A stretch of 64,000 nt of DNA. Source: Candidatus Methylomirabilia bacterium. Its GTDB lineage: Bacteria; Methylomirabilota; Methylomirabilia; Rokubacteriales; CSP1-6. A program made the translations under genes and the position numbers. The first letter of the stretch is position 1. The number at the start of each line of letters is the position of its first letter. The notes below the pieces were generated by a model. The model was not told the origin of the DNA. It made no database searches and saw only the letters and a program-made list of their open reading frames with translations. This document shows, piece after piece, positions 24,590-60,624 of the stretch. Location: contig JBHIBG010000003.1 of the NCBI GenBank assembly GCA_046758965.1, positions 13,829-77,828 of the forward strand, read 5' to 3'.

Positions 24590-24713
24590 GACGAATCGGG
24601 TCTGTTCGAGCCCCGGCTCTTTTGGAACGCCGGCCTTGTTCCGGCGCCGGCTTCGCCGGCGCAACCTCATGGGGGAGGAATCGGAGGGGGCCGTCGAGGC
24701 CCCCTCCGAAGGT

Positions 24714-25898: not shown

Positions 25899-26015
25899 CG
25901 GCGCTCTCCTCTCTGTCACGGGTTCCCGTCGGCCGTGCGGCAGGGTCAGGTGAAGCTCGATCTGACCGCTCCCCTTCGACCTCGCCCCTCGGTCAGTGCC
26001 CACGCCCCGCTCCGC

Positions 26016-27260: not shown

Positions 27261-27296
27261 GCGCTCCCCTCAGCTTCCTTGGTTCAGCCCGAGGCC

Positions 27297-28148
27297 CTAG
27301 CTCGATTTCGGCTTGAGGACCACCTGGTCTCTGAACCGGAGGTCGAGAGAGGCCACCGGCTCGCCCGCCTCGCGGACCCTGACCAGCACCCCGCTCAGCC
27401 GCTCCAGCCGCTGCCCCCACTCCACGCTGCCGAGATACACCTCGAGGCCATCCACCGTGTAGAGGACGGGCCCCTCGGCCCGGCCCATGTCGATCTCCGA
27501 GAGCTGGGCGGCGAGGGCACGCCGGCTCCGGAGCAGATGCCGGAGCAGCGCCAGGGCCTCGTGGGTGCGCGCGGGGCTCGACATGAGACCCACCTCGGCC
27601 CCGTCCGGCAGCAGGCCGGTGATCACGGGGAGGCCGGGAGCGACGGCGCGGGGCTCGGGACCGAGCACGTGGCCGTCCTCGTCGAGCCAGAAGAGCCGCC
27701 CGGCATGGACGGCCAGGGCGAAGGGCTCGCGCTCCTCGATCAGGAGCGTGACCCGATCCGGGAAGGTCCGGATCACCGCGGCGCGCTTGACGCGTGGGTG
27801 ACGCAGGAGCCGCTCGACGACAGCTCCGGGGTCCAGCCTGAAGAGGTTGGCGCCGGCTCCGATCCCGGCTGTCGCGCGAACCTCCTCCTCGTGAAGTCTG
27901 CTCTCGCCCTGAACGTCCACCCCGGTCACGGCGAAGCGGGGCGAAGTGAGAAGCCAGTGGAGGAAGGCGGCCTGGCCGGTGAGCACGAGCGCCAGGAGCC
28001 CGCCCGCGAGGGCAAAGCGGAAAAGGAGCCGCCGCCGAGGGCGCCGCCGCACCCGTTGGCCGACGATGAGAGGGGTCCGCTCCGCCAGATCTTTCGAGGG
28101 CGCCGGCACCTGCCTCGGCGAGTGGATACCCGCCCGGCCCCGCATCAC
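27297..28148 (-). CDS. ftsQ: cell division protein FtsQ/DivIB (POTRA)
   Basis: 283-aa protein with a single N-terminal TM helix and a POTRA domain. It sits in the ftsQ position between murB and ftsA. Confidence 0.8.
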   Translation of the reverse strand: MMRGRAGIHSPRQVPAPSKDLAERTPLIVGQRVRRRPRRRLLFRFALAGGLLALVLTGQAAFLHWLLTSPRFAVTGVDVQGESRLHEEEVRATAGIGAGANLFRLDPGAVVERLLRHPRVKRAAVIRTFPDRVTLLIEEREPFALAVHAGRLFWLDEDGHVLGPEPRAVAPGLPVITGLLPDGAEVGLMSSPARTHEALALLRHLLRSRRALAAQLSEIDMGRAEGPVLYTVDGLEVYLGSVEWGQRLERLSGVLVRVREAGEPVASLDLRFRDQVVLKPKSS

Positions 28149-29023
28149 TCCCCGATGATCCGGATCTCGGGCTCCAGCACGCTGCCGAACTGGGCGCTGA
28201 CCCGGTCCCGGACCATGTCCATGAGGGTCAGGATGTCCGCGGCGCTCGCCCCGCCCCGATTGACGATGAAATTGGCGTGCTTGGCTGAGATCTCGGCGGC
28301 GTTGACCCGCTTACCTTTGAGCCCCACCTTCTCGATGAGCCGACCGGCGTAGTCCCCGGCGGGGTTCTTCCAGACACACCCGGCCGAGGCCAGTGCCAAC
28401 GGCTGCGTGGCCTTCTTCTGCTTGAGCCGCTGCTTGATCTCCTTCTGGATCTCGGCCTGGGGCCGGCGCTGGAGCTGGAGGCGCGCGCCGATCAGGACCG
28501 CCCCCGGCGGGTAAGAAAAGGCGCGGTAGCCGAACGCTCCCGCTCTCGGCTTCAGCTCGCCCAGCGTGCCGTCAGGGTGGAGGAAGTAGACGGCGGAGAC
28601 GAAGTCGCCGATGCTCCCATCGGCGGTGCCGGCGTTCATGGCCAGGGCGCCCCCGATGGTGGCCGGGATCCCCACCAGGCATTCGAGGCCCCCCAGCGAG
28701 AGCGCCGCCGCCTCGCGGATGAGGGACGAGAGGCCGACGCCGGCCCCCGAGACAGCCTCCTCGCCGTGGAACTCGACGCGACCCAGGCACCCCTCAAGCT
28801 TGAGGACGACACCCCGAACGCCCCGGTCCTTCACCAGGAGGTTGTTGCCACCTCCCACGATCTCCATCGGGAGATCTTCCTTCTCGGCGAAGCAGAGCGC
28901 CTTGCGGATATCGTCCGCATCTTGCGGAACGATCAAGATGTCCGCTGGCCCTCCGATGCGCAGGGACGTGTGGAAGGAGAGTGGCTCCTTGAAGCGGACC
29001 TCACCCCGGATCTCTCCTAGCAT
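28145..29023 (-). CDS. murB: UDP-N-acetylenolpyruvoylglucosamine reductase
   Basis: 292-aa protein with an FAD-binding domain and MurB C-terminal domain. Confidence 0.9.
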
Positions 29024-30423
29024 GTCGATCTCCTCTCACGCTCGTGACGAACGACGCTGAGGCGAGCCAAGAGCTCTCTCCCCAGCTGGCCCACATCCCC
29101 CGCCCCGAGGGTGAGGACCAGATCCCCGGGTCGAGCTCTCTCGCACAGGTAGTCGACGACCCGCTCGCGGTCACTGCCCAGATACACGACCTCGCGCTGG
29201 CCATGGGCGGCGATCGCCTCGGCCAGCTCCCCGGCGTGGACCCCGGGGATCGGAGCCTCGCCCGCCGGATAGATATCCATGACCACCAGGGCGTCGGCCT
29301 GCTCGAAGGCGGTCAGGAACTCTTGCCGGAGGTGGAGCGTGCGGGTGTAACGATGGGGCTGGAAGACGGTGACCACGCGACGGTCGAAGCCGGACTTGGC
29401 GGCAGCCAGCGTTGCCCGGATCTCGGCCGGGTGGTGGCCATAGTCGTCCACCACCAGTACACCCCCCGCCTCCCCCTTGACCTGGAAGCGGCGCTGCACC
29501 CCGGAGAAGCCCGCGAGCGCGCGCTGGATCGTCGCAAAGGGGATCTCCAGCTCCAGGCCGACGGCGATCGCGGCCAGCGCGTTCAGGACGTTATGGCTCC
29601 CGGGGACGCGGAGCGCGCACTCGCCGAGAGCCCGGTCGCGCTCGGTGACCTCGAAGGAGCAGGTGAGCCCCGAGAACGAGACCCGATGCGCCGTGAGGTC
29701 AGCGTCCGACCGGAGCCCGTAGGTGATCAGCCGCTTCGCCACCTCCGGGATCATGAGCTGGATGTTGGGCTCGTCGAGGCAGAGCACCACGGCGCCGTAG
29801 AAGGGAACCTTGTTCGCAAACTGGAGGAACGTTTGGCGGATGGCCTCGAGAGAGCGGTAGTAGTCCAGGTGCTCGGCGTCCACGGTGGTGACCACCGCGA
29901 TCGTCGGGGTCAGCTTGAGGAACGAGCCGTCAGACTCGTCGGCCTCGGCCACGAGGAACTCCCCCTGACCCATCCGGGCGTTGCCCCCGAGAGTGAGCAC
30001 TCGGCCACCCACGACGGAAGTGGGATCGAACCCCGCCTCCTCGAGCACGGCGGCCACCATGGACGTGGTAGTGGTCTTGCCGTGCGTCCCGGCCACCGCA
30101 ATCCCGTACTTCAGCCGCATGAGCTCCGCGAGCATCTCCGCCCGCGGGATGACCGGGATCTGGTGCCGGCGCGCCGCCTGCACCTCCACGTTGTCCTTGG
30201 CCACTGCGGAGGAGTACACGACCACGTGAGCCCCTTCGGTGTGCGCTCTGTCATGGCCGATCCAGACCTTGGCGCCCAGCTGCTCGAGCCGCTCCACGGC
30301 CTCCGAGCGCTTCTGGTCGGAGCCGGTGATCCGGTAGCCCATGTTCAGCAGCACCTCGGCGATCCCGCTCATCCCGGCGCCGCCGATCCCTACGAAGTGG
30401 ATCTGCTGGTACTTCTTGTACAT
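29017..30423 (-). CDS. murC: UDP-N-acetylmuramate--L-alanine ligase
   Basis: N-terminus is [25 protein letters not shown]. Mur ligase motif GTHGKTTTT. Confidence 0.9.
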
Positions 30424-30433
30424 CCGAGCCCCC

Positions 30434-31528
30434 TTAGCCCACGTGCTGGGAGATGTTCAAGAGCAGCCCCGCCGCCACCATCGTCGTCAGGAGTGCCGAG
30501 CCGCCGAAGGAGACAAACGGCAACGGCAACCCCGTCGTGGGAAGCAGGCCGGTCACCACGCCGAGGTTGATGAGCGTCTGGCAGGCGAGGAACACCGTCA
30601 GGCCGAGCGCCAGGTAGGCGGCAAAGGGATCAGGCGCGCGGAGGCCGACCCGCACCCCCCGCCAGATCAGGACCATGAACAGCCCCACCACCGCCAGGGC
30701 GCCGATGAAGCCCAGCTCCTCCCCGATGATGGCGAACATGAAGTCGGTATGAGGCTCGGGGAGGTAGAAGAGCTTCTGCTTGGAGGCCCCGAGCCCATGC
30801 CCGAACCAGCCGCCCGACCCCAGGGCCAGGTAGGACTGGATGATCTGAAATCCGCTCCCGAGCGGATCAGCCCAGGGGTCCAGGAAGGAGACGACACGCT
30901 TCAAGCGGTAGGGCGCGGAGGCGACCGCCATGACCACCAGCGGCAGCGCTGAGACGGCCAGAAGGGCCATCTGCGAGAGCCGGACACCGGCCAGGAAGAG
31001 GAGTGCCAGGACGACGGCGAGGAGCGTCAGGCTGGAGCCGAGGTCTGGCTGGAGCAGCAAAAGCCCGGCCATGGCCCCCGTCACCGCGAGCGGCGGAAGG
31101 AGCCCGGTCCAGAAGCTGTGAAGCCCCACTGGGCGGCGGCTCAAGGAGAAGGCTAGGAATGAGACAAACGCCAGCTTGGCCAGCTCGGCCGGCTGGAAGG
31201 AGACCGGTCCCCACCTGATCCAACGCCGCGTGCCGTTGATCTCCTGGCCGAATAGAGGGATGAGCACCACGATCAAGAGCGCCAAGGACAGCACGAGCAG
31301 CGGCACCACGGCCGGCTCGAGCCGCCGGTAGTCGACGATCAACGCGGCCCAGAGGCCAGCGAAGCCGACAAGCGCCCAGAGGAGCTGCTTCTTCAGGAAG
31401 AAATACGGGTCCCCGAATCGGTCGGCGGCCACGATGGCGCTCCCCGAGTAGACCATGACCACCCCGAGGGAGACCAGCGCCACGACGGAGCCGAAGAGCC
31501 ACAGATCGGGTGTGAGTTTCCTCGGCAT
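30434..31528 (-). CDS. ftsW: peptidoglycan glycosyltransferase FtsW (SEDS family)
   Basis: 364-aa polytopic membrane protein with SEDS-family conservation. Confidence 0.9.
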
Positions 31529-32937
31529 CAGTAGTCCGAAAGCGCGTGAACGAGGCTCTCGAAGACCCGCCCGCGCTCCTCGAAGTTCTCGAACATGTCA
31601 AACGAGGCGCATGCGGGCGAGAGCAGCACGACCTCCCCGGGCTCGGCCGCCGCGCGCGCCCCGCGCACCGCCTGCTCCAGGGAGTCGGCGCCCTCCGTTC
31701 GCACCCCTGCCCGCTCGAGCGCCGGCTTGATCTTCTCCCGGTCCTCGCCGATCAGGATGGCCAGGCGGACACGGCCGCGCGCCGCCTCGGCCAGCGAGGC
31801 GAACTCCTGGCCCTTGCCTCGCCCTCCGGCGATGAGAATAATGGGCTCGGAGAAGCTCTCCAGGGCCCTGACGGTGGAGACCACGTTAGTCCCCTTGGAG
31901 TCGTTGTAATACGCCACCCCCCGCACCTCCCGGACCCATGCGAGACGGTGCTCCACCCCGCGGAAGGCGGCGATGGCCCGGCGGATCGAGGCGGAGGGCA
32001 CCCCCGTCCAGAGGGCGCAGGCGGTGGCAGCCAGCACATTCTCCACGTTGTGCTGACCCCGGAGAAAGATCTCGGAGAGCGGGCAGATCCGCTCCGCCAA
32101 CCCGTTCAGTCTCGCCACGATCCAGCCGTCCTGGCAGTAGACGCCGCGCTCCAGTCGGCGCTGGCGGCTGAAGAGGACCACCTGGGCGCGGGCCCGTGAG
32201 GCCAGCACCACGCTCTGCGCGTCGTCAGCATTGAGGATCGCGTAGTCCTGGGCGGTCTGGTTCTCGAGGATCCGGGACTTGGCGGCTGCGTAAGCGGCAA
32301 AGGTCCCGTGACGGTCCAGGTGATCTGGCACCAGGTTCAGGATCACCGCGGTGCGTGGGTGGAAGGCCTCGATGGTTTCAAGCTGGAAGCTCGAGACCTC
32401 CGCCACGATGATCCCGTCAGAGGGAAACTCCAGGACGTGGGCTGCGATCGGCGTGCCGATGTTGCCCGCGATCAGCACGGGACGGACCTGATCGCGGAGG
32501 AGCGCCCCGGTGAGCGCCGTGGTGGTGGTCTTGCCATTCGTCCCCGTGATGGCGATGATGTCGGCCTCCGTCGCCCGCCAGGCCAGCTCTAGCTCTCCGA
32601 TGATCCGGATGCCCCGCTGCCGGACGGGCGCCAGGGCCTGGTGCTCACAAGCGACCCCGGGGCTCACCACAACCAGTTCAGCCGCCTCGAAGGCCTCAGG
32701 GGGGTGGCCGCCCGCGTAGAGTCGGACGCCGGCAGCGCTGAGCGCCTGCGCGTCAGCCGGGAGCGCGCTCAGAGGCTTGGCGTCGGTGGCGGCGACGCGG
32801 GCGCCGAGCGTCAGGAGAAGTCGGCAGGCCGCCACGCCGCTCCGGGCGAGCCCCACGACCGTAACCCTGCGCCCCTTGAGCCACTCCCGGTACACGGTGC
32901 CCCTCTCGCTCATCTGTTCAAGCAGCGCTGGAGCCAT
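31528..32937 (-). CDS. murD: UDP-N-acetylmuramoylalanine--D-glutamate ligase
   Basis: 469-aa Mur ligase with motif GTNGKTTTT. It has the MurD N-terminal Rossmann-like domain. Confidence 0.9.
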   Translation of the reverse strand: MAPALLEQMSERGTVYREWLKGRRVTVVGLARSGVAACRLLLTLGARVAATDAKPLSALPADAQALSAAGVRLYAGGHPPEAFEAAELVVVSPGVACEHQALAPVRQRGIRIIGELELAWRATEADIIAITGTNGKTTTTALTGALLRDQVRPVLIAGNIGTPIAAHVLEFPSDGIIVAEVSSFQLETIEAFHPRTAVILNLVPDHLDRHGTFAAYAAAKSRILENQTAQDYAILNADDAQSVVLASRARAQVVLFSRQRRLERGVYCQDGWIVARLNGLAERICPLSEIFLRGQHNVENVLAATACALWTGVPSASIRRAIAAFRGVEHRLAWVREVRGVAYYNDSKGTNVVSTVRALESFSEPIILIAGGRGKGQEFASLAEAARGRVRLAILIGEDREKIKPALERAGVRTEGADSLEQAVRGARAAAEPGEVVLLSPACASFDMFENFEERGRVFESLVHALSDY

Positions 32938-32960
32938 TCACCCCGCCTCCCCCGGCAGCC

Positions 32961-34040
32961 CTACCTGAGCTTCAGGGTGGCCAGGGCCAGGAGCGCCAGC
33001 GCAAAGGAGACGATCCAGAAGCGCACGATGATCTTCGGCTCTGACCAGCCGGCCAGTTCGTAGTGGTGATGGAGGGGTGCCATGCGCAGGAGGCGCTTGC
33101 CCGTCAGCTTGAAGCCAACCACCTGGACGATCACCGAGGCCGCCTCGACCACGTAGAGCCCGCCGATCAACGGCAGCAGGAGCTCCGACTTGGTGAGCAC
33201 CGCCATCATCCCCATGGCGCCGCCGACGGCCAGTGACCCCACATCCCCCATGAAGACCTGGGCCGGATAGCTGTTGAACCAGAGGAACCCGAGCGAGGCG
33301 CCCACCAGGGCCCCGCAGAAAATCGTGAGCTCCCCGGCGCCCTTGACGTTGGGAATCAGGAGGTAGTCGGCGGCCTTGAAGTTCCCCGTGAGGTAGGCCA
33401 GGACGGTGAACGCCCCGGCGGCCATGATGACCGGGCCGATCGCCAGGCCGTCCAGCCCATCGGTCAGGTTCACCGCATTCGAGGCGCCCACGATCACCAG
33501 GATCGCAACGGGAATCCAGAACCAGCCCAGCGTGATCAGCCACCCTTTGAGGAAAGGAACCACGAGCGTGGTGGAGAAGCCAGCAGGCGGGAAGAGGTAG
33601 AGAGCGGTGAGCAGGGCGCCGACAAGCACGATCTGGAAGCCGAACTTCCGAGCGGCCGAGATCCCCTTCCCGGTCCGGAGCTTCCGGTAGTCGTCCACAA
33701 ACCCGATGCACCCCAAGCCGGCCGTGGAGAGGAGGATCATCCAGACATAGCGGTTCTGCAGATTGACCCAGAGGAGCGTGGAAACCATGAGGGCACAGAG
33801 GATCAGAATCCCGCCCATGGTAGGGGTCCCGGCCTTGGCACGGTGGCTGGGCGGCGTGTCCTCCCGGATCGTCTCCCCGTCCGACTGAAACTGCCGGAGC
33901 TTTTCGATCAACCACGGCCCCACGAGGAAGGAGAGAAGCAGGGCTGTCAGGGTCGCCAGGGCTGTCCGGAACGTGATATAGCGGAAGACGTTGAAGACCA
34001 CGTGTTCCGAGGCGAGCGGCACGAGGAGGTAGTAGAGCAT
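32961..34040 (-). CDS. mraY: phospho-N-acetylmuramoyl-pentapeptide transferase
   Basis: 359-aa protein with full-length MraY similarity, including the DD and HHH motifs. Confidence 0.95.
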   Translation of the reverse strand: MLYYLLVPLASEHVVFNVFRYITFRTALATLTALLLSFLVGPWLIEKLRQFQSDGETIREDTPPSHRAKAGTPTMGGILILCALMVSTLLWVNLQNRYVWMILLSTAGLGCIGFVDDYRKLRTGKGISAARKFGFQIVLVGALLTALYLFPPAGFSTTLVVPFLKGWLITLGWFWIPVAILVIVGASNAVNLTDGLDGLAIGPVIMAAGAFTVLAYLTGNFKAADYLLIPNVKGAGELTIFCGALVGASLGFLWFNSYPAQVFMGDVGSLAVGGAMGMMAVLTKSELLLPLIGGLYVVEAASVIVQVVGFKLTGKRLLRMAPLHHHYELAGWSEPKIIVRFWIVSFALALLALATLKLR

Positions 34041-34043
34041 CTC

Positions 34044-35435
34044 TCATTCGCCTCCTCCCAGCCTGGCTACCAACGCATGCACCACGCGCTCCATCCGCAT
34101 CGCCCGCGACCCCTTCACCAGCAACGTATCACCGGGGGCCAGCCGTTTCATGAGCCGCCCCACGAGAGCCTCGGCGTTCTCGCTCCGGTGACTCTCCCCA
34201 AGGCCGGCCTCCAGGGCCTCCTCCACAGCGAACCGCATGAGGGGCCCCATCCCGATGAACTCGGCAACCCCCAGGGTGGCCACCTGCCGGCCGACCTCGC
34301 GGTGGGCGGCCTCAGCAAGCGGCCCCAGTTCCAGCATATCCCCGAGAGCGACGAGAAGCCGCACGCTCCCTTCCTTCTGAGCGCCGAGGGTAGCCAGCGC
34401 TGCACGCACCGATGCGGGGTTGGCATTGTAGGTGTCGTCCAGGATCCGGATCTCGCCCGCCCTCCGCCAGATCAGACGCCCCCGGGCGGGCCGGGCAGCC
34501 TCAAGCCCCCCGGCGATCTCCTCAAGGGAAAGTCCGACCGCGATCCCCGCTCCTGCGCTGGCCAGGGAGTTGACCACATTGTGGCGCCCCGAGAAGGCGA
34601 GGCGCACGGGGAGCTGCTGGCCGCGGATCTCGAGGGTGAAGGCGAGCCCTTCATGATCCTCCCGGATCTCTCCCGCCGCTCGCACTTCCGCCTCGGGACC
34701 GGTCCCGACGGTGACGACCCTGCCCCGGGCCTCGCCAGCCATCGCCCGCACCCACGGGTCATCCCAGTTCAGGACCACGCTCCCTTCCGTCGGGATCGCC
34801 CGCACCAGCGAAGCCTTCTCGCGCTGAACGCCCTCCAGGTTCTGGAAGAACTCGGTGTGCGCCGCTGACACCGAAGTCACCACCCCGACGGTGGGACGCG
34901 CCAGCTCGGTGAGGGAGGCGATCTCCCCGACTCTGCTGGCCCCGAGCTCCACCACCAGCGCCTGGTGCCCTGCGGAAAGACCGAGGAGCGTGAGTGGGAG
35001 CCCCCACTGGTTGTTGAAGCTCCCCACCGGCTTAAGCACCGTCCATCGGCGCTCGAGAACCGCCGCGATCATCTCCTTCACAGTGGTCTTCCCGTTCGAG
35101 CCGGTCACCGCCACCACCGGGATGCTGAACCGGCTTCGGTGATAGGCGGCCAGCCGGCCCAGCGCGTTCGTGGTCTCGTCCACCAGCACCACCGGCGCCC
35201 CGCCCGGGAGCGCGTCGGTCAGATGATGAACGATCAAGCAGGAGGCTCCGCGCGCCGCCGCTTCCACGACGTAGTCGTGACCGTCCAGGCGATGGCCCCG
35301 GACCGCAAAGAAGGCCTCACCCACACGCAGGGTCCGGCTGTCGATTGACACCCCCCTCACGGGCACGGCCAGGTCTCCCTGAATCAGGGCACCCTGGGTG
35401 GTGCGAACAATGTCCAGCACCGTGAACGGCGGCAT
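34044..35435 (-). CDS. murF: UDP-N-acetylmuramoyl-tripeptide--D-alanyl-D-alanine ligase
   Basis: 463-aa Mur ligase with motif GSNGKTT. Confidence 0.9.
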   Translation of the reverse strand: MPPFTVLDIVRTTQGALIQGDLAVPVRGVSIDSRTLRVGEAFFAVRGHRLDGHDYVVEAAARGASCLIVHHLTDALPGGAPVVLVDETTNALGRLAAYHRSRFSIPVVAVTGSNGKTTVKEMIAAVLERRWTVLKPVGSFNNQWGLPLTLLGLSAGHQALVVELGASRVGEIASLTELARPTVGVVTSVSAAHTEFFQNLEGVQREKASLVRAIPTEGSVVLNWDDPWVRAMAGEARGRVVTVGTGPEAEVRAAGEIREDHEGLAFTLEIRGQQLPVRLAFSGRHNVVNSLASAGAGIAVGLSLEEIAGGLEAARPARGRLIWRRAGEIRILDDTYNANPASVRAALATLGAQKEGSVRLLVALGDMLELGPLAEAAHREVGRQVATLGVAEFIGMGPLMRFAVEEALEAGLGESHRSENAEALVGRLMKRLAPGDTLLVKGSRAMRMERVVHALVARLGGGE

Positions 35436-35443
35436 AGACCTCC

Positions 35444-36943
35444 CTATGGCAAACGCTCCGCCAGGATCTGCCGGGCCACAGCCCGGTCGTCAAAGGGGAA
35501 CAGTTCGGAGTCGACGATCTGGTAGGTTTCGTGGCCCTTCCCGGCGATCAGGACTGTGTCGCCAGGCCGGGCCCACGCGAGGGCTTCTCGGATCGCGGCA
35601 CCCCTGTCCGCGATCATAGCATACCGGGTGGAGTCGGGCCAGGCGCGGCTCACCCCTACGGCGATCTCCTTGATGATGGCGTCAGGATCCTCGCTCCTCG
35701 GGTTGTCAGAGGTGATCCATGCCCGGTCCGAGCCCCTCGCGGCAATCTCCCCCATGATCGGGCGCTTCCCCCGGTCCCGGTCGCCTCCACACCCGAACAC
35801 GACGGCGAGCCGTCCCCTGGTGAGTTTCCGCGCAGAGGCCAGCACGCGCTCCAGGGCATCGGGGGTGTGGGCGTAGTCCACCACGACCAAGAAGGGCTGG
35901 CCGGCCTCCACGCGCTCGAACCGGCCGGGGACCGACGCCACGCTTCCCAGCGCCTTCGCGACGGCCCGAGGCTCAAGCCTGAGCGCCACGCCGACGCCCA
36001 TGGCCGCCAGCAGGTTCATGACGTTATGCTCCGCGACCAGGCTCGAGCGGATCGTGGCGCCCCCCTGCGGCGTTTCGATCTCCATCCTGATCCCGTCCAG
36101 CCCCGCGCTGAAGGCGCCGGGCTTGACCTGGGCGGAGGGGCCGAGACCGACGGTGACCGTAGGGAGTGAGAGGCCCGCCACCATGGGGGGGCCGGCGGGA
36201 TCGTCCACGTTGATGACCGCGCACCGCGTCGTCTTCTTCGAGGCCGCCAGCAGGGTGAAGAAGCGCGCCTTAGCCTGACGGTAGGCCTCCAAGGTCTTGT
36301 GGAAGTCCAGATGGTCTTGCGTCAGGTTGGTGAAGACCGCCACGTCGAAATCAACCCCATCCACCCGGCGGAGCGCGAGCGCGTGGGAGGAGACCTCCAT
36401 GGCCACGCCCTGGACCCTCTCCTGCACCATCCGCGCCAGGAGGGCCTGCAGGTCGAGGGCCTCGGGGGTGGTCTGGTTTGCGTGGAGCGCTTGGTTCCCC
36501 ACCCGGTGCTGGATCGTTCCCACCACGCCGGTCTTCAACCCCGCCGCCCTGAGCAGTGCCTCCACCAGATACGCGGTGGTGGTCTTCCCGTTGGTGCCGG
36601 TGATCCCCACGAGCAGGAGCGCTCCAGACGGATGACCGAAATAGGCATCAGCCAGCTGGGCGAGGGCCTCGCGAGCAGAAGGGACGAGGACGCGGGCTGT
36701 TTTGCTCCCGGGCAGCGGATCGTCCCCCTCCGTCAGCACAACGGCCGCCCCTCTGGAGACGGCCTCGGCGATGAACCGCCTGCCATCTTCACGGAACCCT
36801 GGCACGGCGACGAACATCTCCCCCGCCTTCACCTGGCGCGAGTCCGAGGTGAGACCGCTCAAGCTGGCCGGCAGCCGCCCCAACACCGTCTTTGCCTCGA
36901 GGCTGTCGAGCAGCCTTCGCGCGGGGACAACCCGGTCTCTCAT
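35444..36943 (-). CDS. murE: UDP-N-acetylmuramoyl-L-alanyl-D-glutamate--2,6-diaminopimelate ligase
   Basis: 499-aa Mur ligase with motif GTNGKTTT. The DNPR motif is consistent with meso-DAP-adding enzymes. Confidence 0.9.
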   Translation of the reverse strand: MRDRVVPARRLLDSLEAKTVLGRLPASLSGLTSDSRQVKAGEMFVAVPGFREDGRRFIAEAVSRGAAVVLTEGDDPLPGSKTARVLVPSAREALAQLADAYFGHPSGALLLVGITGTNGKTTTAYLVEALLRAAGLKTGVVGTIQHRVGNQALHANQTTPEALDLQALLARMVQERVQGVAMEVSSHALALRRVDGVDFDVAVFTNLTQDHLDFHKTLEAYRQAKARFFTLLAASKKTTRCAVINVDDPAGPPMVAGLSLPTVTVGLGPSAQVKPGAFSAGLDGIRMEIETPQGGATIRSSLVAEHNVMNLLAAMGVGVALRLEPRAVAKALGSVASVPGRFERVEAGQPFLVVVDYAHTPDALERVLASARKLTRGRLAVVFGCGGDRDRGKRPIMGEIAARGSDRAWITSDNPRSEDPDAIIKEIAVGVSRAWPDSTRYAMIADRGAAIREALAWARPGDTVLIAGKGHETYQIVDSELFPFDDRAVARQILAERLP

Positions 36944-38910
36944 TACTGACGTCCCGTCGGCGGGGCGAGATCAAGCCGGCAGCGCATTCCCCGCTCGATC
37001 CGGACTCCTGCGGCAGGCTTCTGGGCCACGACCACTCCCCCTCCATGGATCTCCACCTGCATCTCGTACGCCGCCAGCGCTGCGAGGGCCAGACGGAGCG
37101 GCTTCCCGACGAGGGAAGGCATCCGCGGCCACTCCGCGTTCCAGGTGCCCGACTCGGCGCGCGAAACAGGAATCACCAACCCGGCCGGAAGGCTGCGCAC
37201 GATCTGGACCGGCGCCGTGTCACGGGGCGGCACATTGAGGTATTCGAGCGTCGCACGCCCGATGGCCGAGAAGATCGGGGCCGCCACCTCGCTCCCCCAG
37301 CGGGCGTTGGCAGGTTCGTCCACGAGAACCAACATCGCCACTCGCGGCTCCTCGGCCGGAGCAAATCCCACGAAGGAGAGGACTCCCGGTTTTCGGGAGT
37401 AGCGCCTCGTGACGGGGTCCAGCTTCTGGGCCGTGCCGGTCTTCCCCGCCACATCGTACCCCCGGATAGCAGCGTTCTGGCCCGTGCCCTCCCTCACCAC
37501 CCGGGTCAGGATCCGGGTGAGCGCCCGACTCGTGGCCGGAGAGACGACCCGCCGGATCACGCGGGGTTCGAAGACCCCGAGAGGTAACCCGTCAGCATCC
37601 AGGAGGGTGCGTACCACCTGAGGCTGGAGCAGCTCGCCCCCGTTGGCCACAGCGGCGAACGCCATGACCATCTGGAGCGGGGTCACCGAGATTTCATGGC
37701 CGATCGACAGCGCCGCCAGCGAGAGCTTGGACCATCGCGAGAGGCTCCAGACTCTGCCCCGGCTCTCCCCGGGCAGCCCGAGGCCGGAGAGGCTCCCGAA
37801 GCCGAACTTGCCGATGTACCGGGAGAACCGTTCCCCCCCGAGCGCCACGCCCACCTTGACTGCGCCGACGTTGGAGGAGCGCTGGAGAACCTCGGAGAAG
37901 GTGAGCCAGCCATACCGTTTCCAGTCGTGGATCACGGTGTTGGCCACGGTGATGGCCCCTTGCTCCGCGTAGACCAGGTCACCGGGCCTCACCACACCTT
38001 CCTCGAGGGCGGCGGCAGCCAGCACCACCTTGAAGATAGAGCCCGGTTCGAAGGGATCGGTAATGGCGCGGTTTCGCCACTCGGCCGGTCTGGCCTTCAC
38101 GAAGCTGTTCGGGTTGAAGGTGGGACGAATCGCCACGGCGAGCAGCTCGCCGGTCCGAGGTTCCACCATCACCGCCATGGCGACCTTCGCCTTGGTCCTG
38201 CGCCAGACCAGGTCGATTTCTCTCTCCGCCAGGTACTGGATGGTCGAGTCCAAGGTGAGCTGGACGCCCCGGCCGCGGACAGAAGGCTTCAGCACCGAGA
38301 GCCTCCCGCTCACCTCGCGCCCCCGCGCGTCGCGCTCCACGAGCGCGAGGCCCGGCCGACCAGCGAGGTGATGGTCCCACGCCAGCTCGACCCCCTCGAG
38401 CCCGTGGTCGTCCACTCCCACGAAGCCAAGCACATGCGCGGCCAATCCCCGGTTCGGGTAGAGCCTGAGGGAGTCTTGAACCAGGCCGAGCCCGGGCTCC
38501 ACCAGGCCGCGCAGCGACCGCGCAACCGAGGGCGGGAGCTTCCGCTTCACCCAGATAAAAGGCCGGTCGGTCGCGAGGCGTTTGGCAATCGCCCGCGCGG
38601 ACTCCCCGAGCAGGGGTGCCAACAGCTGCGCCAGCCGGGCGGGATCCTCGATCCTGGCGGGGTGCGCGTAGAGGGACTCGGTAGTGACTGACACCCCCAG
38701 CGGGCGGCCGTTCCGATCCACGATGGGGCCGCGCTTGGGCCTGAGCGCAATGGTCTTCGAGCGCTGCGCCTCCGCCAGGCGGGAGAGCTCATCGTGCTGG
38801 AAAATCTGGAGCGCGACGAGTCGGATGAGCAGGCCGAGGAAGGCGCAAGCCAGAACGGTCGCGAGGACGAGCACCCGAGAGCGGGAGGGACCGATCGAGC
38901 TCTCAGTCAT
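36943..38910 (-). CDS. ftsI: penicillin-binding protein (FtsI/PBP3-type transpeptidase) with C-terminal PASTA domain
   Basis: N-terminal TM helix, PBP dimerisation domain, transpeptidase motifs (SxxK, SxN, KTG), and a C-terminal PASTA-like segment. Confidence 0.9.
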   Translation of the reverse strand: MTESSIGPSRSRVLVLATVLACAFLGLLIRLVALQIFQHDELSRLAEAQRSKTIALRPKRGPIVDRNGRPLGVSVTTESLYAHPARIEDPARLAQLLAPLLGESARAIAKRLATDRPFIWVKRKLPPSVARSLRGLVEPGLGLVQDSLRLYPNRGLAAHVLGFVGVDDHGLEGVELAWDHHLAGRPGLALVERDARGREVSGRLSVLKPSVRGRGVQLTLDSTIQYLAEREIDLVWRRTKAKVAMAVMVEPRTGELLAVAIRPTFNPNSFVKARPAEWRNRAITDPFEPGSIFKVVLAAAALEEGVVRPGDLVYAEQGAITVANTVIHDWKRYGWLTFSEVLQRSSNVGAVKVGVALGGERFSRYIGKFGFGSLSGLGLPGESRGRVWSLSRWSKLSLAALSIGHEISVTPLQMVMAFAAVANGGELLQPQVVRTLLDADGLPLGVFEPRVIRRVVSPATSRALTRILTRVVREGTGQNAAIRGYDVAGKTGTAQKLDPVTRRYSRKPGVLSFVGFAPAEEPRVAMLVLVDEPANARWGSEVAAPIFSAIGRATLEYLNVPPRDTAPVQIVRSLPAGLVIPVSRAESGTWNAEWPRMPSLVGKPLRLALAALAAYEMQVEIHGGGVVVAQKPAAGVRIERGMRCRLDLAPPTGRQ

Positions 38911-38937
38911 ACTCGGTCGGGCGCTCCACCCTCAATG

Positions 38938-39264
38938 TCACGGAACTCGTGGGACGCCAAGCGCGGAGACCTCCCAGGCCGTCTGGGGCGCACTGCCAGG
39001 AACGACAAACTCCCGCGCCAGCCTCAGCTGATCGGGGGCCGGCGGGCCCATCCCCAGCTCTGCGCGCGCCTTCAGCTCGATCCGCCGCAACGAGCCGAGC
39101 GTGGCGAGTTCCACCCGGAGCTGGCGATTCAGCTCCTCCAGCTCACCTCTGGCCGCCCGCAACTCCTCGAGGCGGTACGAGAGCTGGACAGAGTGAATCT
39201 CCAGCGCCACCACTCCAAGGACTCCGACCACCACGCATGCCGACAGCCCCATCGCCAGCCCCAT
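38938..39264 (-). CDS. ftsL: cell division protein FtsL
   Basis: Small bitopic protein with a TM helix followed by coiled-coil, lying between rsmH and ftsI. The start is uncertain: ATG at 39264 or GTG at 39297. The track ORF extends spuriously to 39570. Confidence 0.55.
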   Translation of the reverse strand: MGLAMGLSACVVVGVLGVVALEIHSVQLSYRLEELRAARGELEELNRQLRVELATLGSLRRIELKARAELGMGPPAPDQLRLAREFVVPGSAPQTAWEVSALGVPRVP

Positions 39265-39313
39265 GGTCCTCAGCCGGCGCCGGTCGCGCTCACGCACGGG
39301 GGAGCCGGAGCGG

Positions 39314-40237
39314 CTACGCGGCGACACGACTGCTCTCCATGCGCTCCAGAACACGGAGCTTGGCGCTTCGGGAGCGGCGATTGGCCCGCACCTCGTCTCG
39401 GCACGGAGTAACGGGGGCCGGCGTGAGCTCGGCAAACGGGCCCGCCGCGAGGCTCTTGAAGATCCGCCGCACCACCCGGTCTTCCCCGGAATGGAAGCTG
39501 ATGACCCCCAGGCGACCGCCCGGCGCCAGCAGTGTCGCAGCCTGAGGAAGCCCCTCAGCCAGCGCCGCAAGCTCGTCGTTCACCGCCATCCTGAGTGCCT
39601 GGAAGGTCCGCGTCGCCACGTGGCTCCGCCGGGGCCACGCGCGTCGCGGCACTGAGGCCTTGACCACCTCAACCAGGTCAGCGGTGGTCCTGATCGGCGC
39701 CGACCCCCGGCGGGCGATAATCCCCCGGGCGATGCGCTGGGCGTGAGGCTCCCCGCCGTACTCCGAGAGGATCCGGACCAGCTCGGCCTGGGAGAGGGTC
39801 CGGAGCAACCGGGCCGCGGTGCGCCCTCCCGACGGATCAACGGACATCTCCAGTGGCTCAACCCGGAGGAACGAGAAGCCTCTCCCGGAGGATTCGATCT
39901 GAGCGGATGAGAGGCCCAGGTCCAGCAGCACGCTCTCGGCTACATCCACCCCCGCCTCCCGCGCGAGGCGACCGAGCTGCCTGAAGTTCCCCTTTCTCAA
40001 CACCACGCGGGCCCCGAACCGGGCGAGGCGAACCTCAGCACGTGCCAGCGCTTCGGCATCCGCATCGATCCCCAAGAGCCTGGTCATTGCCGGGCCGGCC
40101 TCCAGGAGCAGTTCCGCATGTCCACCCTCTCCCACCGTGCCATCCACCACCCATCCTCCGCGCCTGGGTCGCAGGAGAAACAAGACCTCGTCCACGAGCA
40201 CCGGGAGGTGCGCGACCGCCCCCCGGACTTCACCCAT
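39314..40237 (-). CDS. rsmH: 16S rRNA (cytosine1402-N4)-methyltransferase
   Basis: 307-aa SAM-dependent methyltransferase (MraW family). Confidence 0.9.
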   Translation of the reverse strand: MGEVRGAVAHLPVLVDEVLFLLRPRRGGWVVDGTVGEGGHAELLLEAGPAMTRLLGIDADAEALARAEVRLARFGARVVLRKGNFRQLGRLAREAGVDVAESVLLDLGLSSAQIESSGRGFSFLRVEPLEMSVDPSGGRTAARLLRTLSQAELVRILSEYGGEPHAQRIARGIIARRGSAPIRTTADLVEVVKASVPRRAWPRRSHVATRTFQALRMAVNDELAALAEGLPQAATLLAPGGRLGVISFHSGEDRVVRRIFKSLAAGPFAELTPAPVTPCRDEVRANRRSRSAKLRVLERMESSRVAA

Positions 40238-56563: not shown

Positions 56564-56699
56564 CAGCGACAGTAGCGAGCCGCTCCATGGACAAGAAGAG
56601 ACGCGAGGCCGAATGGGCCGAGGCAAAGCGCCGATGTCGCCTGAATGCCGAGACCCTGCAGATGGCGAAGGAGCTGCGGCTCAACCCACGAACGGAAAG

Positions 56700-57272
56700 C
56701 TGACCGCCTGGCCGCTCACTTCATCATCGACTTTTCCCGAAATCAGATAGTGGTTCGAGGCGGTAAGGGCAACAAGGACCGCTATACGATGCTTCCCGCA
56801 GCAGTCAAAGAACTCCTGCTGCAGCACCTCCAGGCGGTCAAACGCCGGCACGACGATGACCTCAAGCGCGGCCTCGGCCGGGTCGGCTTGCCCAACGCCC
56901 TCGAACGCAAATACCCAAACGCGGGGAAAGCACGGGGATGGCAGTGGCCGCTTCCCGCCTCAAGCCATTACACCGATCGGGTGACGGGAGAACGGCGCCG
57001 CCACCACATCCACGAATCGGTTCTCCAGAGGGCGATTAAAGAGGCCAGGCTCAAAGCCGGCATTGTGAAGCCAGCCAGCTCCCACACGTTGCGGCATTCC
57101 TTCGCCACTCGCCTGCTCGAGCATGGTTACGAACCCTGACCGTCCAGGAGCTCCTGGGCCACAGCGATGTCAGCACAACGATGATCTACACCCATGTTTT
57201 GAACCGGGGCGGCAGAGGAGTTCGCAGCCCGGCGGATGCGCTGACCATGGCGGTCAATCCGTCGCAGCCATA
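56700..57272 (+). pseudogene. intI: integron integrase (IntI) remnant, 5'-truncated and frameshifted
   Basis: QIVVRGGKGNKDRY and the IntI-specific insertion LPNALERKYPNAGKARGWQWPLPA...RRHHIHE...[21 protein letters not shown] are present. A frameshift near 57137 then continues in another frame as [31 protein letters not shown]. The N-terminal ~170 aa are absent. Confidence 0.75.
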
Positions 57273-57501: not shown

Positions 57502-57684
57502 ATGTCAGGGAGCACCGCCAAGCAGAGGGTCCTCGAGGCGATCGAGAAGCTGCCAGCCGACGCCACGCTGGAAGATGCCATAGAGCGCCTCGTCTTCTTG
57601 GCGAAGATCGAGCGGGGGCTGGCGGAGCTGGACGCCGGCAAAGGCGTCGAGCACACCGAGGCTAAGCGCCGACTCGTCCGGTGA
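57502..57684 (+). CDS. putative addiction-module antitoxin (TIGR02574-like small antitoxin)
   Basis: 60-aa protein (AKQRVLEAIEKLPADATLEDAIERLVFLAKIERGLAELDAGKGV), immediately followed by a RelE/ParE-like reading frame. Confidence 0.65.
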   Translation: MSGSTAKQRVLEAIEKLPADATLEDAIERLVFLAKIERGLAELDAGKGVEHTEAKRRLVR

Positions 57685-57901
57685 CCCGGGTCATCTGGGC
57701 ACCCCAGGCCATCAGCGTATCGTCGGCGCGGTGACCCGACTTGAGAGCTTCCCTCGTTCCGGGCGAGTGGTACTAGAGGTTGGTGACGAGTCCCTCCGCG
57801 AGATCGTCCACGGCAGCTACCGAATCGTGTACCGGCTCAAGTCGGGGGTCGTCGAGGTTGTCACAGTGTTTCACGGTGCCCGGTTGTTTCGGCTCGACTG
57901 A
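57681..57901 (+). pseudogene. RelE/ParE-family toxin, internally deleted and frameshifted
   Basis: The N-terminal peptide VTRVIWAPQAISV stops at 57734. A second frame encodes the C-terminal RLESFPRSGRVVLEVGDESLREIVHGSYRIVYRLKSGVVEVVTVFHGAR. The middle of the toxin is missing. Confidence 0.6.
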
Positions 57902-57989: not shown

Positions 57990-58012
57990 CGCCGAAGTAA
58001 CACGTAGACGCA

Positions 58013-58260
58013 ATGAAAGGCTTATTCCACCTGAAGAGCGCCAAGGACCTCCTCGCCAAGCTGCGCCATGACTTCGAGCGCCTTCAGCGCGACCCTGTCG
58101 ACGCTTATGCTGCCTTCGACTTCCGCGTGACCGCGAGACATCTACCGGAATGGCTCTATCCGGGCGACCCTAGAAAGCAGGACGTGCCGTTCCAGAATAA
58201 CCTTATTCTTCAGGTCTGCCGGCAGATCGCTGATGGCGCCAAGCATATCTATGCTCCAGG
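58013..58260 (+). CDS. hypothetical protein, probably 3'-truncated
   Basis: The first ~80 codons (MKGLFHLKSAKDLLAKLRHDFERLQRDPVDAYAAFDFRVTARHLPEWLYPGDPRKQDVPFQNNLILQVCRQIADGAKHIY) look protein-like. The ORF then runs antisense into osmC with Pro/Arg-rich nonsense. Confidence 0.3.
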
Positions 58261-58262
58261 CG

Positions 58263-58727
58263 CTACTCCTCCTCCACCTCCCCGTCCCACTCGATGGCGA
58301 TGCCGCGTTGGACAGACTGTGCAGCCGGGCAGCCTTTTTCGTGAACCTCGATGGCCCGGAGAGTCTCCTCGCGCTTGCCCTTGGGAACCTTGACCTTGTA
58401 GTGCACCTTGATCTTCGTGATCAGCGGCTTGCCGTCCACGTTCTCGATGACTCCCTCGACTTCGGAGGACAGGCGGTCGGGCTGGCTCGGGATCTTCCGC
58501 GCTGCTAGCGCCCCGGCTAGCGTGCCGGTCATTCACCCCGCCACCGCGGCGATGACATGGTCAAGCGTGGTAGGCAGCTCCTCCTCCGGCTCGACGCCGT
58601 AGAACTTCTTGATCCCCCCGTGGACGCCGTATCGCACCGGCTCGGGGAAGGCCTCGATGTAGGCCCGGCGAACCGGCCCCTTGTCTTTGATGATCTTCAC
58701 CCTGGAAATGTGAATCAGCTCACCCAT
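58263..58727 (-). CDS. osmC: OsmC/Ohr-family peroxiredoxin with in-frame TGA at the peroxidatic Cys position (candidate selenoprotein, or nonsense-mutated pseudogene)
   Basis: Two adjacent ORFs, 58533..58727 (...LDHVIAAVAG) and 58263..58532 (MTGTLAGALAARK...HEKGCPAAQSV...), are separated only by a TGA at 58533-58535. Aligned to OsmC (LIGAAHAAC*FSMALS ... AKAGCPVSQ), the TGA falls exactly at the Cys59-equivalent codon. The second Cys is conserved. Confidence 0.6.
58269..58306. repeat. ~38-bp direct repeat, copy 2 (native osmC 3' end)
   Basis: Same sequence as copy 1. The two copies bracket a ~5.0-kb segment (helicase operon, intI remnant, TA cassette, truncated ORF). Confidence 0.75.
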
Positions 58728-58843
58728 AGCTGCTCCTCCTTGTGCCGCCTCGTCAACGCAGGCTTACTGGATCGTGATCCGTCACGCAGCACTATACTCG
58801 CCGGAGACCCAACGCGCTATTGTACAGGAAACCTCCCGGAGGC

Positions 58844-59854
58844 ATGGCTCGCTTGAGGTTCGAAGAGCTGAAGCGGTTCCTCGAGCGGTCGGCCGTGGCG
58901 GCCCACGCCCCCGACCGCGTGACGATGAGAGAGCGCTACCGCGGGGTCCTGGTGGGCGTGGCGGCCGGCAATGCGCTGGGCCTGGGCGTCGAGGGGTGGT
59001 CACGCAGGCTGATCGAGGCGCGGTTCCCCAACGGCGTGAGGGAGGCAGACGCCGCGGAGCGCGAGCGCCCCTGGGATGACGATCTGGCCCAGACCGCGAT
59101 CCTGGGGGAGGCCCTGCTGGCCGGGGAGGAGCTGACGCCTGAGGATCTGGCCTCGCGCCTTCTCCGCTGGGCGTACGACAACGGCCGCGGCATGGGGAAC
59201 CTGAGCTGGCGCGTACTCTCGGAGCTGGCTTCGGGAACGCCGCCAGCGGTCGCCTCTCGCCGGGTCTGGGAGCGGGACGGCCGCGCCCCGGCGGGCAACG
59301 GAGCCGTCATGCGGTGCGCTCCGGTCGCGCTCCGGTGGCGGACGTCCGGTCACCGGCTGGTGGAAGAGACGGCAACGAGCGCGCTTGTGACTCACTACGA
59401 TCCCCGCTGCGTCTGGTCCGCCGTAGCCTTGAACGTCGCGCTCGCCCTGTCCCTCGGCGGAGCCACTCCGGACCTGGAGGAGCTGGCGACAGCGCTGGAC
59501 CGCGCCGGCGCACCGGTCGAGGTGGGCGCGGCGATTCGATTCGTGCGGGGGCGCGCTCTCCCCGAGCTGCTCCTCGATCACCGCGCCGATATGGGATACA
59601 CGCTCAAGGCCATGCAGGTGGGGCTCTGGTCGCTGCAGCAGGAGCTTGATTTTGAGGAGGTGCTGGTTCGCGTGGTGAACGCCGGAGGAGATACCGACAC
59701 CAACGGCGCCGTGGCGGGAGCGGTCATGGGGAGCCGGGTCGGGGTTTCCGGCATCCCATCCCGTTGGGTGGCGAACATTCGGGAGGCCGGCCACCTGCTG
59801 GATCTGGCGGACCGCCTCTTTGAGGCGTGTGAGGGCGCGGGGGCTACCGGATGA
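58844..59854 (+). CDS. ADP-ribosylglycohydrolase family protein
   Basis: ARH fold markers are present. The C-terminal GDTDTNGAVAGAVMG matches the DraG/ARH metal-site motif. The start is probably MARLRFEEL at 58844. Confidence 0.8.
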   Translation: MARLRFEELKRFLERSAVAAHAPDRVTMRERYRGVLVGVAAGNALGLGVEGWSRRLIEARFPNGVREADAAERERPWDDDLAQTAILGEALLAGEELTPEDLASRLLRWAYDNGRGMGNLSWRVLSELASGTPPAVASRRVWERDGRAPAGNGAVMRCAPVALRWRTSGHRLVEETATSALVTHYDPRCVWSAVALNVALALSLGGATPDLEELATALDRAGAPVEVGAAIRFVRGRALPELLLDHRADMGYTLKAMQVGLWSLQQELDFEEVLVRVVNAGGDTDTNGAVAGAVMGSRVGVSGIPSRWVANIREAGHLLDLADRLFEACEGAGATG

Positions 59855-59973
59855 CGAACTCGAGCCGACGATGCGCCTGGCGCGGGGCTGCGTCGACTTC
59901 CCCGGGGCTCTCGGCTCTCGCAACGATGAACCCGAGGTACTGCCAGCCCTCCGGAGGCGGCACCAGCTCCTGG
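59791..59973. repeat. ~183-bp direct repeat, copy 1 (3' end of ARH gene plus duplicated 3' fragment of ATP-grasp gene)
   Basis: ccacctgctggatctggcggaccgcctc...ggaggcggcaccagctcctg is ~95% identical to 62330..62513. It contains the antisense coding sequence for ...PPPEGWQYLGFIVARAESPGEVDAAPRQAHRRLEFVIR*. Confidence 0.8.
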
Positions 59974-59974
59974 C

Positions 59975-60490
59975 GAGCTGGGCGTGACCGCGATCCTGCA
60001 CACCTAGGATCAGAACCTCTCCCAGCACATCCATGTGCACTGCGTCGTGACGGGCGGGGCCCTCTCGTCCGACGGCGCGCGCTGGATCCGGGCCTGGGCC
60101 GGCTTTCTATTTCCGGTCGGGACCCTGTTCAAGGTGCTCCGGGGAACCTGCCTCGCCGGCCCCGCGGCCTTCACCGCCTGGCTCGACCGCCTCCGCCACC
60201 AGGCCTGGGTGGTGTACTGCAAACAGCCTTTTGGCGGTCCCGAGCAGGTGCTCGCCTACCTCGCCGCTACACCCACCGCGTGGCGATCTCCAACGAGCCC
60301 CTTGTCAAGCTCCAAGACGGGATGGTGCGCCCCCGCTGGCGCGACTACGCCGACGGCGACCGGGTGAAGGTCCTCGAGCTCGAGGCGGCGGAGTTCATCC
60401 GGCGCTTTCTGCTCCACGTCGTTCCGGACGGCTTCGTGCGCATCCGCCACTTTGGCCTCCTGGCCAACCGTACGCGCCCCGTGTTCCGCT
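59975..60490 (+). mobile_element. IS91-family (Y2 HUH rolling-circle) transposase remnant: 5'-truncated, nonsense plus frameshift
   Basis: ...GVTAILHT*DQNLSQHIHVHCVVTGGALSSDGARW...WVVYCKQPFGGPEQVLAYL[frameshift]RRYTHRVAISNEPLVKLQDGMVRPRWRDYADGDRVKVLELEAAEFIRRFLLHVVPDGFVRIRHFGLLA. The conserved ILHTW shows TGG->TAG. A 1-nt deletion lies before RYTHRVAISN. The remnant begins right at the repeat boundary. Confidence 0.7.
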
Positions 60491-60624
60491 CCCGCCCAGC
60501 TTGTAGCATACCCCCGCCGGGGATAGAATCCCCCTATGGCCCCAGGGGCCCCGGTTCAGTACAACTGGTTTTATCCGTCAAGCTGCTGCACGACGGATAA
60601 AAGCCTCAGTGTTAGAGGAGCAAC

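Follow-up and report, generated by a model that had tools for sequence, protein, structure and literature searches.

The replacement of cysteine (Cys) by selenocysteine (Sec) in peroxidases, OsmC-like proteins included, is already well established, and that general picture is unchanged by the gene described here. The gene encodes a predicted OsmC-type peroxidase and carries an in-frame TGA at its catalytic codon. It lies on the minus strand of a 64-kb stretch of DNA with 67% GC, taken from contig JBHIBG010000003.1 of a Candidatus Methylomirabilia bacterium; this whole stretch is referred to as the window. Codons are numbered such that the TGA position is U65.

Among the closest described systems is an OsmC-like selenoprotein family, which was reported from the Sargasso Sea in 2005 by Zhang, Fomenko & Gladyshev. 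It comprised three sequences of the COG1765/YhfA type with the motif UxxT (PMC1088965), and it is still included in current reviews (PMC9312934, PMC13188914). The NCBI curated model NF041052, named ‘OsmC-related (seleno)protein’, probably represents this 2005 family. A preliminary description of the locus had mentioned an OsmC-like family among environmental selenoproteins; this is correct, though the family in question is a different subfamily. The use of Sec, together with very large predicted selenoproteomes, is also reported for the phylum (PMC13188914, PMC13582414). According to the statement in PMC13188914 that cites Deng et al. 2026, 63 selenoproteins are predicted for one metagenome-assembled genome (MAG) of Methylomirabilota, and no larger bacterial selenoproteome has been reported. 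Further, Sec-type group 4 hydrogenases are present in both Methylomirabilota and Acidobacteriota (PMC13582414).

Judged from its sequence and that of its relatives, the gene of the window would be a genuine selenoprotein gene with Sec at UGA 58535..58533, at a probability of about 0.92. The features on which this reading is built are the following.

58263..58727, minus strand: predicted selenoprotein coding sequence, complete, 154 sense codons from M1 to E154 including U65, followed by TAG.
58533..58535, minus strand: predicted selenocysteine codon TGA (U65) at the OsmC peroxidatic-Cys position, assigned from the alignments to 1ukk and 1qwi and from orthologous loci.
58329..58331, minus strand: resolving-Cys codon TGC (C133, motif KGCPAAQ), assigned because it aligns with the residue that has this role in the OsmC proteins of E. 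coli and T. thermophilus.
58265..58263, minus strand: true terminator TAG, by direct reading of the sequence.
58733..58741, minus strand: Shine-Dalgarno-like AAGGAGGAG, by direct reading of the sequence; a distance of 7 nt separates the end of its GGAGG core from the downstream ATG (58727..58725).

Upon translation of the frame 58727..58263, the TGA was found to be the sole in-frame interruption, and there were no further stops or frameshifts. The Shine-Dalgarno sequence before the first ATG is strong; neither a sigma-70-like promoter nor an intrinsic terminator was found in 58000-59000. When Cys is written at the stop, the protein matches the Pfam OsmC family (PF02566) at 45.8 bits against a gathering cut-off of 27.5 (E=8.6e-12). 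In alignments, the position of the TGA is that of the peroxidatic Cys in T. thermophilus OsmC (1ukk) as well as in E. coli OsmC (1qwi). Its counterpart in the E. coli protein is Cys59, within AAHAACFSMALS, and C133 corresponds to Cys125. The window motif KGCPAAQ aligns with AGCPVSQ, which contains the resolving Cys of OsmC, and C133 is kept in 80 of 81 sequences. The preliminary description had reported an OsmC-family gene intact save for one in-frame TGA, the placement of this TGA on the catalytic Cys59 codon, with which both alignments agree, and the retention of the resolving Cys in KGCPAAQ; it was accurate in these respects.

The orthologues carry much of the argument. One genome per species was scanned with tblastn, which gave 301 related stretches, and the best 80 were retained. 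These loci match the window protein across residues 1-154 with an identity of 51-92%, and they belong to Methylomirabilota/Rokubacteria/NC10, Acidobacteriota (Terriglobia, Vicinamibacterales), Nitrospinota, Nitrospirota and Deltaproteobacteria. One of the loci, L008, comes from a MAG that bears the label Ca. Methylomirabilis oxygeniifera. At the catalytic position, 78 of the 80 loci were observed to have TGA and none to have TAA or TAG, the other two (L048 and L057) having a Cys codon, TGC or TGT. Because their identities range from 51 to 92%, the 78 TGA loci are not assembly copies of one sequence. In the window’s clade, the ratio of nonsynonymous to synonymous substitution rates (dN/dS) amounts to 0.106 upstream of the TGA (codons 2-64) and to 0.122 downstream of it (codons 66-150), and from these near-equal values it follows that both halves of the gene are equally constrained. 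That a TGA should fall on the catalytic Cys and be conserved there in 78 of 80 other species is far beyond chance.

The second line of evidence comes from the messenger RNA. A bacterial Sec insertion sequence (SECIS) element is expected to have a loop of 3-9 nt, a stem of 4-16 bp, a G in the first two loop positions, a spacing of 16-37 nt and a folding energy of -7.5 kcal/mol or better (PMC13188914). The structures considered downstream of the UGA are given below.

58504..58521, minus strand: predicted SECIS upper hairpin, H1, assigned from RNAalifold, pairing conservation, energy, the trough in synonymous diversity and the SECIS criteria.
58497..58528, minus strand: possible extended SECIS stem, in which CCGGC (58528..58524) pairs with GC.CGG (58502..58497) around H1, as in the minimum-energy folds of many clade members.
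58499..58511, minus strand: alternative small hairpin GCGCU-AGC-AGCGC in the register of H2 (described below), which competes with H1 in the isolated fold.

H1 consists of a 5' arm GCUAGC (58521..58516), a loop CGGGGC (58515..58510) and a 3' arm GCUAGC (58509..58504). It begins 11 nt past the UGA with a UGA-to-loop spacing of 17 nt, and it passes the SECIS criteria with its 6-nt loop, 6-bp stem and energy of -9.5 kcal/mol. The hairpin noted earlier at about 11 nt after the UGA, written as CGCUAGC-CGGGG-CGCUAGC, is thus present, the pairing being GCUAGC/CGGGGC/GCUAGC. The alternative hairpin at 58511..58499 would itself satisfy the same criteria. The window copy is able to form H1 as well as a short hairpin in the H2 register.

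Across 34 sequences of the window clade, the RNAalifold consensus is exactly H1, in which columns 15-20 pair with columns 27-32 (the numbering starts at the U of the UGA). In this clade, 90.6% of the cells of H1 and its lower stem are paired, against 21-52% for control partners slid along the 3' side; the extended lower stem is less conserved than H1, its pairs being retained in 55-100% of the sequences. In 33 sequences from the other clades, RNAalifold recovers a different hairpin, H2 (GCGCGC-UGGNN-GCGCGC), with columns 23-28 paired with 34-39, that is, 8 nt further downstream. Here, double changes from G-C to A-U occur in 10 sequences, where a 3'-arm change of Ala to Val (GCG to GUG) is matched by a synonymous 5'-arm change of GCG to GCA. 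The pair flanking H2 alternates between C-G and G-C, and the covariation score of H2 was reached by none of 500 shuffles. Since the UGG of the H2 loop is invariant, the six-fold degenerate codon of Leu74 is always CUG. A third hairpin, CUGGCCGG-GGUC-CUGGCCGG, with a four-base GGUC loop, is found in the Nitrospirota and Deltaproteobacteria loci. The UGA-to-loop spacing is 20 nt in the GGUC type and 25 nt in H2, and both types also pass the SECIS criteria. As a side observation, the hairpins of loci L034-L080 and those of the window and L001-L033 follow the same UGA in columns 14-40 and are non-homologous, and the peptide encoded under them, TLAGAL-A/E/D-AR, varies little between the clades.

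The synonymous sites point in the same direction, as the deepest synonymous trough of the gene sits on the hairpin in each clade set. For the window clade, codons 69-75 have a diversity of 0.226, compared with a median of 0.425 over the gene, and rank lowest of 141 codon stretches; for the H2 clades, codons 72-77 have 0.179 against 0.438 and again rank lowest, here of 148. Among the Sec forms, 72 of 79 carry an H1 or H2 hairpin with an energy of -7.5 kcal/mol or better. In the four Cys forms examined, the hairpins are weakened in all and the loop GG is lost in three, the loops reading CUCGAA in L048 and L083 and UUUGGA in L084. The comparison of orthologues, with TGA in 78 of 80 and Cys in two, and with a hairpin that RNAalifold recovers, clearly refutes the possibility raised in the preliminary description that this copy is a unique nonsense allele of a Cys-containing gene with no conserved structure downstream. 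The proposal of a Sec-containing OsmC made there is supported by the same TGA count, by dN/dS and by the placement of the conserved hairpin on the lowest synonymous diversity.

The protein databases largely reflect truncation at this codon. Out of the best 120 protein matches, 111 are truncated: they start directly behind the TGA and are 89-93 residues long, and some bear an OsmC family name. One of them, P0010, is the exact window fragment, C-terminal and 89 residues long, which NCBI names ‘OsmC family protein’. The full-length entries P0002-P0008 carry Cys at the position, and each such Cys form is one continuous polypeptide, 154-156 residues long. When the family was surveyed at 50% identity, Cys stood at the position in 58 full-length clusters, whereas 28 clusters started immediately behind it and 30 stopped immediately in front of it.

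Two full-length entries were considered as counter-evidence to Sec and set aside. P0009 shows Trp at the position, but the codon in its DNA (locus L082:181-648) is TGA, and the Trp is, therefore, a translation by the gene caller under an alternative genetic code. In P0001 (L081:601-1065), the Gly is a true GGA. This 86% identical copy lies on a single metagenome contig of 1.3 kb and keeps the H1 hairpin at -7.9 kcal/mol; the GGA might have come from an error in sequencing, might mark an inactive variant or might have arisen recently by the change of one base, and such a lone short contig does not affect the conclusion. Trp, Arg or Gly is also found at the catalytic position of the full-length database proteins P0127, P0138, P0156, P0166, P0175 and P0179; these may likewise be artefacts, or else derive from TGA by a change of one base.

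For the fold, an AlphaFold model was made on the Cys form P0002, which is 71% identical to the window protein. The model has a predicted local distance difference test score of 80 and a predicted template modelling score of 0.78. It places position 65 in a long central helix (55-75), and C133 sits at the kink where helix 119-132 meets helix 134-139. The 50 best matches of the model in the PDB are all OsmC/Ohr proteins, with the T. thermophilus and E. coli OsmC heading the list. The modelled features are those of an OsmC fold, in which the central helix carries the peroxidatic residue and the pair of C-terminal helices carries the resolving Cys, and it is the conserved catalytic pair that suggests a hydroperoxide reductase activity.

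Several observations weigh against the reading as a selenoprotein gene. SelA, SelB and SelD were not found by Pfam among the 29 scanned open reading frames (ORFs) of the window, a search with a scope of 64 kb. ARAGORN detected no tRNA at all in the window, nor did the flanks of the 80 loci yield a tRNA-Sec. A second selenoprotein gene was not found in the window either; a scan for TGA-interrupted frames based on GC content at third codon positions gave, apart from this gene, only gene boundaries and antisense-frame artefacts. In this GC-rich window, 11.8% of the TGA triplets have behind them a hairpin that would pass as a SECIS by the same criteria. Rfam gave no match to a SECIS model or to any other family at gathering thresholds and only noise at E values up to 10. 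When isolated, the 39-nt window segment prefers two smaller hairpins (-17.1 kcal/mol) over H1. In addition, a synonymous G-to-A change at 58503, common to the window and L005, loses the outer C-G pair (C14-G33). Finally, the hairpin of the window clade is without two-sided compensatory change, its variation being solely from U-A to U-G, and part of the conservation of H1 could, therefore, reflect the conserved peptide TLAGALA.

The fold of the RNA downstream of the UGA was a check proposed in the preliminary description. The hairpin string is present and passes the criteria; the minimum-energy fold of the single sequence favours other hairpins, and its z-scores are unremarkable (0.05 for the 71 nt after the UGA and -1.4 in a second test). 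Taken alone, the window hairpin is weak evidence. The comparative evidence for a hairpin is much stronger than that of the single copy.

Among the other explanations, the one that survives best, itself improbable, is that the UGA is recoded to a residue other than Sec. This could take place through SelB-dependent insertion of Cys by a tRNA-Cys(UCA), or by near-cognate readthrough to Trp, Cys or Arg. A non-canonical tRNA-Cys(UCA) with which SelB inserts Cys has been described (PMC6103700, as cited in PMC13582414); a UGA at a Cys position with a SECIS-like hairpin would fit such insertion equally well. It is, however, rare for a costly UGA and a hairpin to be kept merely for Cys, and the phylum is reported to use Sec (PMC13188914, PMC13582414). 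As for readthrough by near-cognate decoding, it requires no conserved hairpin. A genome-wide reassignment of UGA is ruled out, since TGA is the terminator of 12 of the 20 other Pfam-confirmed genes in the window; any recoding must, therefore, be local to codon 65.

It is still less probable that the locus is a conserved split gene, in which a 64-residue N-terminal peptide and a separately translated C-terminal part of 89 residues associate. In the window’s clade, an ATG does stand directly after the TGA, and gene callers predict the 89-residue product. In about half of the loci, however, the codon right after the TGA is not ATG but CUG (Leu), and there is, therefore, no standard restart codon there for the C-terminal half. 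A split at this point would remove precisely the catalytic nucleophile and would break the protein within the long central helix of the model, whereas the Cys forms are unsplit polypeptides. Such a split would also fail to account for the conserved hairpin and for the constraint on synonymous sites.

The idea of a nonsense mutation, a pseudogene of a Cys-containing OsmC decaying beside mobile-element fragments, draws on the degraded or mobile neighbours (integrase fragment, Y2 transposase fragment and ParE toxin) and on the NCBI annotation of just the C-terminal fragment P0010, but is hardly credible in view of the same TGA in 78 of 80 other species, the dN/dS of about 0.11 on either side of it, the otherwise open frame and the strong Shine-Dalgarno sequence before the first ATG.

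Sec at U65, thus, is the reading that we prefer. We infer the insertion of Sec, the presence of selA, selB, selC and selD in the source genome, the peroxidase activity and the identity of the reductant, and the process would run as follows. The UGA at 58535..58533 would not be read as a stop, as the stem-loop H1 of the messenger RNA would act as a bacterial SECIS element. H1 would recruit SelB with GTP and Sec-tRNA(Sec) to the ribosome, and Sec would be inserted at U65. By analogy with OsmC/Ohr chemistry, the selenolate of U65 would then attack an organic or inorganic hydroperoxide and be converted to a selenenic acid. Condensation of this acid with Cys133 would yield an intramolecular selenenylsulfide, and reduction of the latter by a cellular reductant would follow.

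The neighbourhood of the gene is of a mixed nature. A truncated phage-integrase fragment (56645-57136, plus strand; positions 49-145 of 172 of the Pfam profile) and a small ORF followed by a ParE toxin (57502-57898, plus strand), likely a toxin-antitoxin pair, lie on one side. On the other side, an intact, divergently transcribed ADP-ribosylglycohydrolase gene (58820-59854) and a Y2_Tnp transposase fragment (59851-60597, plus strand; profile positions 111-179 of 183) are found. The earlier suggestion of a decaying accessory region holds for these neighbours, with their integrase and transposase fragments and ParE toxin, but not for the OsmC gene itself. In a synteny comparison, the window neighbours were not kept beside the orthologues. 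All-against-all clustering of the ORFs in the flanks gave no partner common across phyla, a reductant included, and the top clusters were alternate-frame artefacts over the gene itself. In the Vicinamibacterales loci L060-L080, a gene of about 518 residues (e.g., L071:3554-5107, plus strand) lies immediately downstream on the same strand and is followed by a transketolase-like gene. The N-terminus of the ~518-residue product looks like a thioredoxin-fold (DUF255-like) domain, and it might be a redox partner or might reflect order-level synteny.

Away from this region, a long co-directional run of ORFs at 22686-40237 (minus strand) ends with a MraW methyltransferase gene (39314-40237), its only Pfam-confirmed member, and looks like a dcw/mur cell-wall and division cluster. 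Because of this run and the genes for purA, a serA-type dehydrogenase, fumarase and ATP-binding cassette (ABC) transporters, most of the window is considered ordinary chromosome and not an accessory island. Two of its ORFs are longer than their domains: the adenylosuccinate synthetase match in 6929-9223 (minus strand) spans residues 332-748 of 764, and the nitroreductase domain in 16350-18311 (minus strand) spans residues 246-385 of 653. The true starts of both are probably internal, the ORFs being GC-rich over-extensions and not fusions.

To a specialist, a Sec-containing OsmC-type peroxidase in a Sec-rich phylum would be unsurprising. Its use lies in the correction of a widespread misannotation, in a candidate for the curated selenoprotein families and in the differences of SECIS register among orthologues. 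Hundreds of database entries for this gene are cut at the UGA, and reading it as Sec restores a complete peroxidase with its catalytic residue. The conserved TGA, almost certainly a Sec codon, spans dozens of species of soil and groundwater bacteria. On the Sec reading, Methylomirabilota and Acidobacteriota, which play important parts in the cycling of methane, nitrogen and soil carbon, would each have one more family in their selenoproteomes; a selenium-dependent OsmC-type peroxidase would imply that their defence against oxidative stress depends on the supply of selenium. The shift of the SECIS register between clades also offers a tractable case of the turnover of RNA structure under coding constraint.

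Among known systems, OsmC proper (E. coli 1qwi/1nye and T. thermophilus 1ukk) is the nearest neighbour in both sequence and structure. The two share the fold, the placement of the helices and the alignment of both catalytic Cys positions; they differ in an identity of about 21-22% (for the model of the Cys form), in the N-terminal segment and in the predicted Sec at the peroxidatic residue of the window protein. Against TIGR03562, the model of OsmC proper, the window protein scores 29.8 bits where the cut-off is 85.8; of 21 clade members, 20 give only weak matches, the best of them at E = 1.9e-7.

With the OsmC-like selenoprotein family of 2005, the window clade shares the PF02566 superfamily, a predicted Sec in place of the redox Cys in the N-terminal active-site helix, a SECIS element just downstream of the UGA and the existence of Cys homologues (PMC1088965, PMC9312934, PMC13188914). 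Its motif is, however, U-[ML]-[TLM]-G-[TN], with an invariant Gly at +3, as compared with the UxxT of the 2005 family (PMC1088965). Unlike that family, the clade is also marked by some 50 residues at the N-terminus that are conserved and distinctive (HGGIKKFY, TLDH). The window protein scores 23.3 bits against NF041052, the cut-off of which is 95 bits; the 21 clade representatives all stay at about 20-25 bits, with a best E of 4.4e-6, and distant Cys relatives likewise score 20-25 bits. By the available tests, that is, the NF041052 score and the motif description, the window clade does not appear to be a member of the 2005 family and would form a separate clade of the superfamily. This separation from the curated Sec-OsmC family is probably why the NCBI pipeline truncates the gene.

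Other Sec-containing peroxide reducers (Sec-peroxiredoxin, Prx-like, AhpD-like and glutathione peroxidase) similarly have Sec for the peroxide-attacking Cys and keep a nearby Cys or Thr (PMC1088965), but their folds, the thioredoxin or AhpD fold, are unrelated to the OsmC fold. With the E. coli fdhF-type and consensus bacterial SECIS, the predicted element shares a stem-loop within the coding sequence, 3' of the UGA, and a small apical loop with a G in its first two positions. It has no sequence similarity to the fdhF-type SECIS, and the register of its hairpin differs by clade within one orthologous family. These comparisons lead to a tentative proposal, which we rate at slightly less than an even chance. 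In this proposal, the clade would be a second one within the OsmC superfamily to have taken up Sec independently, nearer to OsmC proper than to the YhfA type, uncaptured by the curated selenoprotein models and annotated as an 89-residue fragment. Its Sec form would predominate in Methylomirabilota, Acidobacteriota (Terriglobia, Vicinamibacterales), Nitrospinota and Nitrospirota, and its SECIS would have moved between at least three registers (17, 20 and 25 nt) over a nearly constant peptide.

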